Shown here: in pieces, positions 7,769-9,137 of the stretch
Numbering within the stretch: the stretch's first letter is position 1
Layout: every line of letters starts with the position of its first letter
Sequence record: MN508614.1
From: Escherichia phage ES12
Length of the DNA stretch: 64,000 nucleotides
Direction: 5' to 3' (one strand)
The notes under the pieces: model-generated
What the model saw: only the letters and a program-made list of their open reading frames with translations
What the model was told of the DNA's origin: nothing
Databases searched by the model: none
Made by a program: the position numbers and the translations under genes

Positions 7769-7844
7769 TGGTCGAGGCAGTAGGGATCGAACCTACGACC
7801 TAGGACTTAGAAGGTCCTTGCTCTTCCTTCTGAGCTATGCCTCG
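7769..7844 (-). tRNA. tRNA-Arg (anticodon UCU)
   Basis: Hand-folded cloverleaf: acceptor CGAGGCA/UGCCUCG, anticodon loop CUUCUAA, T-loop GGTTCGATCC, CCA encoded. Confidence 0.85.
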
Positions 7845-7848
7845 GATT

Positions 7849-7923
7849 TGGCGGACGTGATAGGATTCGAACCTATAACCAATCGCTTAACAGGCGATCG
7901 CTCTGCCATTGAGCTACACATCC
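7849..7923 (-). tRNA. tRNA-Asn (anticodon GUU)
   Basis: Acceptor GGATGTG/CACGTCC, anticodon stem ATCGC/GCGAT, loop CTGTTAA, T-loop TTCGAAT, discriminator G, CCA encoded. Confidence 0.8.
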
Positions 7924-7927
7924 AAAT

Positions 7928-8014
7928 TGGTGGGGAGTGATGGAGTCGAACCACCCGAGTCGCAATGACAATGGATTTACAGTCCACACCGCTACCTCTA
8001 CGGGATAACTCCCC
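7928..8014 (-). tRNA. tRNA-Tyr (anticodon GUA), long variable arm
   Basis: Acceptor GGGGAGT/ACTCCCC, anticodon loop CTGTAAA, 15-nt variable arm, T-loop TTCGACT, CCA encoded. Confidence 0.8.
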
Positions 8015-8023
8015 AAATTAATT

Positions 8024-8098
8024 TGGTGGCCCTGGGTGGAATTGAACCACCATCTGGCGATTATGAGTCGCTTGCTTGAACCTTCCAGCTACAGGGCC
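8024..8098 (-). tRNA. tRNA with CAU anticodon (Ile2 or Met; Ile expected by analogy with T4)
   Basis: Acceptor GGCCCTG/CAGGGCC, anticodon loop CTCATAA, T-loop TTCAATT, CCA encoded. Confidence 0.75.
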
Positions 8099-8099
8099 T

Positions 8100-8175
8100 T
8101 GGTGCTGATTGACGGAATCGAACCGCCGACCTTCTCATTACAAGTGAGTTGCTCTACCTACTGAGCTAAATCAGC
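8100..8175 (-). tRNA. tRNA-Thr (anticodon UGU)
   Basis: Acceptor GCTGATT/AATCAGC, D-arm GCTCAGTAGGTAGAGC, anticodon loop CTTGTAA, T-loop TTCGATT, CCA encoded. Confidence 0.85.
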
Positions 8176-8180
8176 AAAAC

Positions 8181-8270
8181 TGGCGGAGGCGATAGGATTT
8201 GAACCTATGAGTCGCCGGAGCGACTGCCGGTTTTCAAGACCGGTGCATTAAACCACTCTGCCACGCCTCC
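8181..8270 (-). tRNA. tRNA-Ser (anticodon UGA), type II
   Basis: Acceptor GGAGGCG/CGCCTCC, anticodon stem CCGGT/ACCGG, loop CTTGAAA, long variable arm, CCA encoded. Confidence 0.85.
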
Positions 8271-8272
8271 AG

Positions 8273-8346
8273 TCTCCATACAAGGATTTGAACCTTGGAC
8301 CTCCTGATCCCAAATCAGGCGCTCTACCAAACTGAGCTACACGGAG
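8273..8346 (-). tRNA. tRNA-Pro (anticodon UGG), CCA not encoded
   Basis: Acceptor CTCCGTG/TATGGAG (two G-U pairs), anticodon loop TTTGGGA, T-loop TTCAAAT; 3' end followed by CTG not CCA. Confidence 0.8.
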
Positions 8347-8356
8347 TAAATTAAAT

Positions 8357-8430
8357 TGGAGCGGATAATGAGAATCGAACTCACATCATCAGATTGGAAG
8401 TCTGAGGTAATACCATTATACGATATCCGC
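8357..8430 (-). tRNA. tRNA-Gly (anticodon UCC)
   Basis: Acceptor GCGGATA/TATCCGC, anticodon stem TCAGA/TCTGA, loop CTTCCAA, T-loop TTCGATT, CCA encoded. Confidence 0.85.
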
Positions 8431-8435
8431 AAATT

Positions 8436-8522
8436 TGGTGCGAGAAGTGGGACTCGAACCCACAAGGAAATCATTCCGCAGCATTTTAAGTGCTGTGCCT
8501 TTACCAATTTGACCATTCTCGC
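8436..8522 (-). tRNA. tRNA-Leu (anticodon UAA), type II
   Basis: Acceptor GCGAGAA/TTCTCGC, anticodon stem CAGCA/TGCTG, loop CTTAAAA, long variable arm, T-loop TTCGAGT, CCA encoded. Confidence 0.85.
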
Positions 8523-8528
8523 GCTATA

Positions 8529-9137
8529 TTATTTATTACGTGAAAAAGAATGTTCTATCAATTCTGGACACTTTCGTTCTATCCATTTTCTAGCTTTTTG
8601 TGGGCTTATACCTATTATTTTAGCAGCTTTACTAACCCATCCAAATTTAGAATAATCGATTTTAACTAATTCTTCGTAAATTTCATCAGTTAAAATCTTT
8701 TCATTAATATTTACCAGTAAATGATATAATTTATTATCATTAGCAATTTTAATGAATCTTTTATAGTTTCCGCCTTTACTTAAACCTAATGAAGTAATTG
8801 CAGATGATATAGTAGTCGAATTTAATAGTGCGTTTAAAATTTCTTCATCACTAACATTATAACGCTTTCTATTATTTTTAATATTTTTACCAGCAAAAGT
8901 ATCAGTTTGCGAATGGCAATTTGGACATAATAATCTTAAATTTGATTTAAGATGATTTTTGTTATTTCCATCAATATGGTCTAATTGTAGAACAATATGC
9001 TTATTTTGCCATTTTGAAATTTTACAAATTGCACACTCATATGGAAAAATATTTTCTTTTATTATTTTGTCTTTTAGCTTTCCTGTACTAAAATTTGGGT
9101 GTTTTCCTTCAAAAATTTCAGCTAATTTAGTATCCAT
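8529..9137 (-). CDS. HNH-family homing-endonuclease-like protein
   Basis: HNH motif CAICK...LQLDHIDGNNKNHLKSNLRLLCPNCHSQTD; ORF-track start at 9161 is TTG, first ATG at 9137; stop 7 nt from tRNA-Leu 5' end. Confidence 0.8.
   Translation of the reverse strand: MDTKLAEIFEGKHPNFSTGKLKDKIIKENIFPYECAICKISKWQNKHIVLQLDHIDGNNKNHLKSNLRLLCPNCHSQTDTFAGKNIKNNRKRYNVSDEEILNALLNSTTISSAITSLGLSKGGNYKRFIKIANDNKLYHLLVNINEKILTDEIYEELVKIDYSKFGWVSKAAKIIGISPQKARKWIERKCPELIEHSFSRNK

Follow-up and report, generated by a model that had tools for sequence, protein, structure and literature searches.

The tRNA array of Escherichia phage ES12 (sequence record MN508614.1) opens not with a tRNA gene but with a free-standing gene for an HNH endonuclease. 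We analysed a stretch of 64,000 nucleotides from this record (the window), in which the region described here is 100% identical to Escherichia phage ES26 (MN508618), a Tequatrovirus; in the comparisons below, ES26 stands for the window sequence. The array is of the T2 type, and its first gene, tRNA-Gln(UUG), has probably been overwritten by an HNH homing-endonuclease gene that is allelic to it. The two genes are alternative occupants of a single site that is polymorphic in the population, and the HNH allele is found across many genetic backgrounds, is intact and evolutionarily constrained, and belongs to a family that resides in phage tRNA arrays.

The anatomy of the site is resolved by comparison with phage BW-1, which is 99.8-100% identical to the window for more than 1.3 kb on each side and yet has tRNA-Gln(UUG) at the position of the HNH gene. 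Base by base, identity runs to 9144, the 7th nucleotide of tRNA-Gln, and restarts at 8525; between these breakpoints lie 618 bp in the window and 64 bp, tRNA-Gln nt 8-71, in BW-1. An earlier note on this DNA, made from the sequence alone, had placed the HNH gene where tRNA-Gln would be expected, and this comparison bears the placement out: a near-isogenic relative carries tRNA-Gln, so the arrangement is not the same in all relatives. The parts of the site, all on the minus strand and given in the order of transcription, are as follows.

9151-9236, minus strand: conserved intergenic leader upstream of the array, common to the HNH and Gln alleles.
9144-9150, minus strand: 5' stub of tRNA-Gln(UUG), TGGGAAT, acceptor-stem nt 1-7; identity with BW-1 ends exactly at 9144.
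8526-9143, minus strand: HNH cassette of 618 bp, consisting of 6 nt, the open reading frame (ORF) and 3 nt, which stands in for tRNA-Gln nt 8-71.
8529-9137, minus strand: HNH endonuclease coding sequence, 609 nt (202 aa), with ATG at 9137, stop codon at 8529-8531 and an upstream in-frame TTG at 9161.
8523-8525, minus strand: 3' stub of tRNA-Gln, AGC, directly abutting tRNA-Leu; these bases are common to the window and BW-1.

The stop codon of the HNH gene is separated from tRNA-Leu by 6 nt (TATAGC) rather than by the 7 nt given in the earlier note, whose identification of the gene, borne out by a PHROG match, and of its position otherwise stands. The GC content of the cassette is 25.4%, against 35.7% for the window. 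The leader is present in 17 of 18 sampled genomes, and together with the 7-nt stub (9144-9236, 93 nt) it is 100% identical in ES26, BW-1, Sfk20, G29, IMG7500 and OE5505.

Little of the replaced gene survives. Neither ARAGORN nor Rfam finds a tRNA-Gln anywhere in the 64-kb window, as had been claimed from hand folding. When blastn with T4 tRNA-Gln and a permissive Rfam scan of 7100-9300 are added, only the stubs of 7 and 3 nt remain, and the scan shows nothing resembling a tRNA within the HNH gene or beside it. The search for remnants of tRNA-Gln that the earlier note had proposed thus succeeded at the two edges of the cassette and failed within the gene itself. The possibility of an intron-borne endonuclease in a split tRNA-Gln was considered and rejected, as no intron RNA was found and the tRNA cannot be a split one because its halves are absent. 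The cassette contains no promoter consensus, no group I or group II intron and no match to any other Rfam family, and a sigma-70 promoter scan detected no coding-strand consensus in the leader or between the HNH gene and an upstream ORF of 171 aa (ORF171). The cassette is essentially a bare ORF, without a promoter or RNA element of its own; the GGGA of the 5' stub, 8 nt before the HNH ATG, may act as a weak Shine-Dalgarno sequence. Of the Gln codons of the phage, 70% are CAA (24.5 per thousand codons), and a carrier of the cassette, having lost its own tRNA-Gln, must rely on host tRNA-Gln(UUG) for this preferred codon.

The distribution of the two alleles was surveyed in the GenBank phage collection, a scan of IMG/VR with the 5' half of tRNA-Leu having given just 3 contigs. 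The cassette occurs in 63 GenBank phage records, representing about 50 distinct phages, and each record holds a single complete copy, always at this site and 98.1-100% identical; an intact Gln junction occurs in 448 records, and in about 60 the match to the junction probe is split in two at one and the same breakpoint (query position 68-70). The alleles are mutually exclusive in all 18 loci sampled, the nine HNH loci being without tRNA-Gln and the nine Gln loci without the HNH gene. Among nine carriers the cassette is 98.5-99.8% identical in pairwise comparison, whereas the upstream trna.3/trna.2 flanks diverge to 80%, and the far greater uniformity of the cassette therefore indicates its recent spread across backgrounds. 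Consistent with such spread, the nearest flank relatives of carriers often bear the Gln allele (ES26/BW-1, 99.7%; OE5505/IMG7500, 100%; teqhad/T6, 98.4%; BP32/T4, 97.5%), the first two of these being near-isogenic natural pairs. The cassette also co-occurs with every other variant of the array modules that was sampled: with and without ORF171, with and without tRNA-His, with either tRNA-Thr or an ORF in the Thr slot, beside segB in the Asn slot (BP32 and T4_ev151), and beside a GIY-YIG gene that replaces tRNA-Pro (CM8). Between a51 and ES26, distinguishing upstream single-nucleotide polymorphisms begin within about 30 nt of the junction, and the transferred tracts can therefore be very short. 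Two marks of a free-standing homing endonuclease gene, an element more uniform than its flanks and polymorphism at a fixed site, are both seen here, and the cassette is a mobile allele of the tRNA-Gln site across the genus. We also considered, and rejected, the idea that T4_ev151 and T4_ev240 are laboratory-evolved T4 phages that gained the cassette, as their flanks are only 92-97% identical to T4; a literature search found no paper describing either phage.

The protein encoded by the cassette matches PHROG HNH-endonuclease families (phrog_14736, E=5e-123, and a further one, E=2.6e-29). It comprises an N-terminal zinc-bound HNH domain followed by C-terminal helical, helix-turn-helix-like modules. 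In an alignment of 20 full-length homologs, C35, C38, C71 and C74 are invariant and correspond to a CxxC...CxxC zinc site, D53-H54 (with D53 preceding H54), N66 and H75 are invariant or nearly so, and a GWV...PQK...W module is conserved in the C-terminal part. Strands predicted at residues 51-54 and 67-70 and a helix predicted at 72-75 would form a beta-beta-alpha unit, as in His-Me finger endonucleases. The ORF is intact in all 12 sampled copies; the ratio of nonsynonymous to synonymous substitution rates (dN/dS) is 0.09 among nine Tequatrovirus alleles, an estimate drawn from only 17 polymorphic sites, and 0.13-0.25 against orthologs at 57-68% identity. Purifying selection acts on an intact protein which, judged from its sequence, looks functional. 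It has no GIY-YIG or NUMOD match, unlike the SegB-like protein of CM8, which matches both GIY-YIG and NUMOD3. No Mob-type match is present among its protein-family matches, no direct comparison with Mob proteins having been made.

The closest characterised relative of this protein is F-TflIV (hegA) of T5 and BF23, to which it is 33% identical over residues 16-184 (84% of its length; tblastn against T5 ORF070 and BF23 hegA, E=2e-14). Papers that cite the original work (PMC2330249 and PMC10644984, citing Akulenko et al. 2004) describe F-TflIV as a site-specific endonuclease of the H-N-H type from the tRNA gene region of T5, and in BF23 its gene lies within the tRNA region and begins 24 nt past a CAU tRNA. 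The two genes are homologous, free-standing and located within phage tRNA regions, but F-TflIV is a distant relative from the Demerecviridae rather than the Straboviridae and sits after the CAU tRNA without replacing a tRNA. The GenBank records of ACG-C40, BP32 and Ec_O157kw already label the Tequatrovirus gene 'similar to T5 TflIV'.

The family comprises 5,507 homologs. Residence in tRNA arrays extends to the family as a whole and is nearly exclusive among the relatives examined. In contigs of more divergent T4-like phages, orthologs at 57-68% identity occupy the syntenic head of the array. Other homologs, full-length and 41-44% identical, are squeezed in between tRNAs, some of them overlapping the 5' end of the next tRNA, and further homologs lie inside phage tRNA regions (loci L009-L014 and L026-L029); more distant matches include homologs in Gordonia, Streptomyces and Rhodococcus phages, some of which overlap tRNA annotations. 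Eighty IMG/VR loci encoding relatives form an unselected set in which several loci are near-duplicates. Within this set tRNAs are found within 2 kb in 73 loci (473 tRNAs in total, about 1.4 per kb), 39 ORFs begin no more than 150 nt after a same-strand tRNA, and 45 end no more than 150 nt before one. The upstream neighbour is tRNA-Gln(UUG) in 4 of the 39 cases, against 2.7% of background tRNAs, and the commonest downstream neighbour is tRNA-Leu(UAA), with 9 of 45 cases at gaps of -15 to +8 nt against a background of 6.6%; the same neighbour is found in the window. These enrichments are suggestive only, given the near-duplicate loci and the fact that tRNA-Tyr, tRNA-Leu(UAA) and tRNA-Arg(UCU) are equally or more common neighbours than tRNA-Gln(UUG). 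For the same reason the proposal that the whole family is tied specifically to tRNA-Gln holds only in part.

Two of these homologous loci offer further observations. In L009, which carries a 68%-identical ortholog, the HNH gene is followed by about 400 nt of GC-rich non-coding sequence (4604-5009) and by a stretch at 5087-5317 with a motif resembling the 3' half of a tRNA, GGTTCGAGTCC; Rfam at its gathering threshold finds nothing in either stretch, and both may be stable RNAs or tRNA remnants. In an unrelated phage array (L012-L014, 4594-5512), a 41%-identical homolog extends into the 5' end of tRNA-Lys(UUU), and a SegE-like GIY-YIG gene lies two tRNAs later, between tRNA-Lys(CUU) and tRNA-His, so that two endonuclease families share one array.

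How such a gene might replace a tRNA is suggested by SegB of T4. The preferred cleavage site of SegB is the T2L tRNA-Asn gene, which is missing in T4, and the enzyme homes in T4 x T2L crosses (PMC2330249); a 2026 study established that SegB has a broad association with tRNAs and amplifies tRNA-Tyr to counter the Septu defence, and overexpressed T6 tRNA-Tyr rescues infection under Septu immunity (PMC13096335). Like the HNH gene of the window, segB is a free-standing gene of the same array, co-transcribed with tRNAs, situated where tRNAs are missing (Tyr and Asn in T4) and polymorphic among T-even phages. As cutting of tRNA genes and homing have both been demonstrated for SegB, it serves as our mechanistic model, although it has a GIY-YIG fold and occupies the slot between the CAU tRNA and tRNA-Arg, whereas the window protein has an HNH fold, occupies the Gln slot and is known from sequence. 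The two genes coexist in single arrays (BP32 and T4_ev151). By analogy, the HNH protein may work like SegB, without being a member of the SegB family.

From SegB, other T-even Seg and Mob enzymes and the F-Tfl enzymes of T5 we infer nuclease activity, a target site, homing in co-infection and a mode of expression for the HNH gene. When a carrier and a phage without the cassette infect the same cell, the enzyme would introduce a nick or a break into the Gln allele, at or close to tRNA-Gln or its junction with tRNA-Leu; we place the target there because no other sequence is consistently missing from carriers. The lesion would be repaired by recombination with the genome of the carrier, which would turn Gln into HNH through very short tracts of co-conversion, and carriers would be immune to cutting because the body of tRNA-Gln is gone. 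Expression would occur by read-through within the polycistronic tRNA precursor, and RNase P cleavage at tRNA-Leu would set the 3' end of the HNH mRNA, 6 nt past the stop codon; the similar idea that processing of the tRNA precursor limits endonuclease expression has been discussed for SegB and the T5 enzymes (PMC2330249).

Several observations weigh against this interpretation. The Pfam HNH match falls below the gathering threshold (17.4 versus 21.4 bits), and a Foldseek search with the HNH protein gave no significant match. Homologs in L009, L027 and L028 sit 14-50 nt downstream of an intact tRNA-Gln, and the family consequently does not overwrite Gln by nature; the site that is actually recognised might be at the 3' end of Gln, at the Gln-Leu junction or in the Leu gene. 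The cassette is found in about 12% of records, so it is not sweeping, and the tRNA genes are too conserved to reveal co-conversion tracts downstream of it. Its occurrence in different backgrounds could in principle reflect ordinary homologous recombination in mixed infections, without any help from a nuclease.

A far-reaching extension of the preferred interpretation would make the protein a member of a widespread clade of HNH homing endonucleases that is specialised on phage tRNA arrays, recognises particular tRNA genes (here tRNA-Gln(UUG) or the Gln-Leu(UAA) junction, a linkage that recurs in very divergent phages), can overwrite its targets and so acts as a main driver of turnover in phage tRNA repertoires; its breaks, like those of SegB, might also serve to amplify or exchange tRNAs that act against defences, tRNA-Tyr for example. 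We entertain this view only tentatively.

An alternative that we consider rather unlikely retains the mobile HNH element but anchors it on tRNA-Leu(UAA) or on the Gln-Leu junction, with the loss of Gln being collateral and followed by deletion. Gln and Leu are adjacent in T4, T2L and BW-1, and because in T-even phages they abut with a spacer of 0-1 nt, insertion 5' of tRNA-Leu would destroy Gln; the prominence of tRNA-Leu(UAA) as downstream neighbour of the family, shared by the window with its 6-nt gap, and the ability of homologs to coexist with an intact Gln also speak for it. However, tRNA-Gln(UUG) is likewise enriched, as upstream neighbour, in the IMG/VR cases and in L009, L027 and L028. 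Moreover, the breakpoints cleanly remove nt 8-71 of the Gln body and not merely its 3' end, and a site wholly inside Leu would leave carriers open to self-cleavage, since Leu is unchanged in them.

That the HNH gene is an inactive or domesticated passenger, with the Gln/HNH polymorphism spread by ordinary homologous recombination and no homing, appears improbable. T-even phages do recombine very often, the array is a mosaic of presence/absence modules that includes Thr-slot ORFs and a His module without a nuclease signature, and the modest frequency of the cassette is in keeping with a passenger. An inactive selfish gene would nevertheless be expected to decay, whereas all 63 copies are full-length and the sampled ORFs combine the low dN/dS given above (0.09-0.25) with invariant catalytic and zinc residues; the cassette (at least 98.1% identical) is also far more uniform than flanks that diverge to 80%.

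Host adaptation, in which loss of tRNA-Gln is itself beneficial or the nuclease has been co-opted, like SegB, to break and amplify neighbouring anti-defence tRNAs, is in our judgement likewise improbable. Escape from Septu is achieved through SegB-driven segmental amplification of tRNA-Tyr, and the paper that shows this asks in its discussion whether the HNH-family Mob homing endonucleases do likewise (PMC13096335); host and phage tRNA-Gln are among the tRNAs cut by retron Eco2 (PMC12916289), and the array lies near Acb1 and internal-protein genes. However, neither the window nor any of the carriers sampled shows tandem amplification of the array, and with CAA so prevalent among Gln codons the loss of tRNA-Gln(UUG) looks like a cost. 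The broad reading of the earlier note, that the HNH endonuclease remodelled the whole cluster and so explains its tRNA-Tyr and tRNA-Asn as well, is suggested only by the co-occurrence of these features in the window and deserves almost no credence, as the comparative data already contradict it: tRNA-Tyr and tRNA-Asn have identical sequence in the HNH-free BW-1, Sfk20, G29 and T2L, and the HNH gene also occurs in arrays without Asn and/or Tyr (BP32, CM8 and T4_ev151). Endonuclease-driven remodelling thus stands for the swap of Gln for HNH, which is mobile across the genus, and falls for Tyr and Asn.

The remainder of the array consists of nine minus-strand tRNA genes at 7769-8522, found independently and with agreeing anticodons by ARAGORN and Rfam RF00005. 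The RF00005 scores are 59-74 bits, except for tRNA-Tyr at 30.2 bits against a cutoff of 29, and nine high-scoring tRNAs within 754 bp are far beyond chance. All nine anticodons agree with those that had been assigned by hand.

8436-8522, minus strand: tRNA-Leu(UAA), CCA encoded; 87/87 identical to T4.
8357-8430, minus strand: tRNA-Gly(UCC), CCA encoded; 74/74 identical to T4.
8272-8346, minus strand: tRNA-Pro(UGG), without encoded CCA, 1 nt from tRNA-Ser; 74/74 identical to T4 tRNA-Pro.
8181-8270, minus strand: tRNA-Ser(UGA), CCA encoded; the T4 copy (L004, 4119-4205) has TAA there instead.
8100-8175, minus strand: tRNA-Thr(UGU), CCA encoded; 73/76 identical to T4.
8024-8098, minus strand: CAU-anticodon tRNA of T2L type, not T4 type; 47/75 identical to T4 tRNA-Ile.
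7928-8014, minus strand: tRNA-Tyr(GUA) with a long variable arm, without counterpart in T4; 98.8-100% identical to T2L and BW-1.
7849-7923, minus strand: tRNA-Asn(GUU), without counterpart in T4.
7769-7844, minus strand: tRNA-Arg(UCU) of T2L type; 49/76 identical to T4 tRNA-Arg and 97.5% to T2L.

The array does not match the T4 set, which is Gln, Leu, Gly, Pro, Ser, Thr, Ile and Arg with segB between Ile(CAU) and Arg; comparison with T4 confirms the statement in the earlier note that T4 has Gln but neither Tyr nor Asn. In the comparison of arrays tRNA-Ser is identical to that of T4, but the CAU and Arg tRNAs are different genes from those of T4, being only 47/75 and 49/76 identical (63-64%). 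The window instead resembles the T2L cluster (AJ880101), which was deposited in 2005 and analysed in 2008 (PMC2330249) and runs CAU-Tyr-Asn-Arg, then trna.2, rnaD and rnaC, without segB. From the CAU tRNA through Tyr, Asn and Arg to the trna.2 ORF, rnaD and rnaC the two are 95-99% identical, and from Leu to Ser they are 100% identical; T2L differs in having tRNA-Gln in place of the HNH gene and the ORF trna.1 in place of tRNA-Thr. The T2L-type 3' half is found equally in genomes without the HNH gene (BW-1, Sfk20 and G29). The presence of Tyr and Asn is therefore unconnected with the HNH gene: they belong to the T2-type set, were lost by T4 where segB sits, and are not products of this endonuclease. 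The GUN-anticodon tRNAs for Tyr, Asn and His carry queuosine in E. coli.

Two of the tRNAs call for comment. The earlier note was right that tRNA-Pro lacks an encoded CCA, and it is the only one of the nine to do so; in T4 the tRNAs for Gln, Pro, Ser and Ile all lack it, and the CCA-less tRNA-Pro is a known feature already present in T4. ARAGORN and most GenBank records give the CAU tRNA as Met, but its best E. coli match is annotated as tRNA-Ile (ileX-type; 81.6% over the full length). Its acceptor stem, GGCCCTG/CAGGGCC, gives the pairs C4-G69 and C5-G68 when read from the sequence, and these pairs are reportedly determinants for TilS. The gene is probably a tRNA-Ile2, predicted to be lysidine-modified and to read AUA, and the label Met would then be wrong; AUA makes up 23% of the phage's Ile codons.

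A literature search found no paper on this HNH gene of Tequatroviruses, on tRNA-Gln as its alternative allele or on the residence of the whole family in tRNA arrays. What is new here is an uncharacterised HNH gene whose replacement of a tRNA is cleanly resolved; the concept is already established by SegB (since 2008), the T5 F-Tfl enzymes and mycobacteriophage arrays, and the case will not surprise a specialist. T4 MobA-E are likewise free-standing HNH homing endonucleases, located between conserved T-even genes and engaged in intronless homing (PMC2790892, PMC2988022), but no Mob gene lies in the tRNA cluster. HNH genes in mycobacteriophage and other viral tRNA arrays have been proposed to diversify tRNA repertoires (Pope 2014 via Morgado & Vicente, PMC5966550, PMC6409571); as far as the accounts in these secondary sources extend, such surveys are descriptive, without the allele-level replacement of a specific tRNA or the near-isogenic pairs available here. 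The locus cleanly documents, at the level of alleles and in near-isogenic natural pairs, the replacement of one particular tRNA gene by a selfish endonuclease gene, an incremental addition and a fairly ordinary instance of how such genes reshuffle phage tRNA sets. Together with segB in the Asn/Tyr slot and the GIY-YIG gene of CM8 in the Pro slot, it shows that T-even tRNA repertoires differ in large part through the exchange of a tRNA gene for an endonuclease gene. This is of some relevance, as phages are now known to use their tRNAs against defences that cleave tRNAs, and as many Tequatroviruses are candidates for therapy whose tRNA content enters into annotation and into reasoning about host range. 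The enzyme itself is a candidate new site-specific nuclease, with what would be a ready-made natural substrate.

Other slots of the array vary as well. In Shigella phage CM8 (L002, 2906-3566) the GIY-YIG and NUMOD3 SegB-like gene replaces tRNA-Pro from the post-Gly spacer to the first base of Ser, and the array of this phage is also without Tyr and Asn. The tRNA-Thr slot is occupied by an ORF of 133-160 aa ('trna.1') in T2L (L008, 584-985), OE5505 (L019, 3128-3610) and T4_ev240 (L112, 4010-4492); the T2L trna.1 ORF has no Pfam match, and this ORF is another presence/absence module of the array. A 190-nt module, composed of a 114-nt non-coding leader and tRNA-His(GUG), lies between Asn and Arg in a51 (L001, 3414-3603), teqhad, ACG-C40, OE5505 and G29. 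It is independent of the HNH/Gln state of the array and is missing from the window.

Downstream of tRNA-Arg, the array continues with an ORF and is closed by two stable-RNA homologs.

7402-7752, minus strand: trna.2 ORF (T2L naming), 116 aa; phrog_3355, E=2.7e-54.
About 7288-7402, minus strand: rnaD homolog, with likeness to T4 kept only at its two ends (blastn).
7146-7284, minus strand: rnaC homolog, 99.3% identical to T4 over 139 nt (blastn); with rnaD it closes the array.

Neither rnaC nor rnaD is covered by an Rfam family. The rnaC homolog has a stable fold (z=-4.6) with a T-arm-like hairpin, CCGGGUUCGAAUCCCGG, and inside the rnaC homologs of G29, BP32 and ACG-C40, though not in that of the window or of T4, ARAGORN reports a 94-nt 'tRNA-Lys(ttt)' or 'tRNA-???'. 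The ORF listed at 6546-7196 is over-extended from a TTG and overlaps rnaC. On the other side of the array, upstream of internal-protein genes, an ORF at 11332-11787 on the minus strand encodes the anti-CBASS phosphodiesterase Acb1 (Pfam PF23474, E=2.6e-60), which places the tRNA array in the neighbourhood of counter-defence genes. Three small minus-strand ORFs at 10691-10936, 11001-11258 and about 6546-7013 begin with MKTYQEFIAE, MKTFKEFATK and MKSYTQFLNEA, N-termini which we take to resemble the capsid-targeting N-termini of T4 internal proteins.

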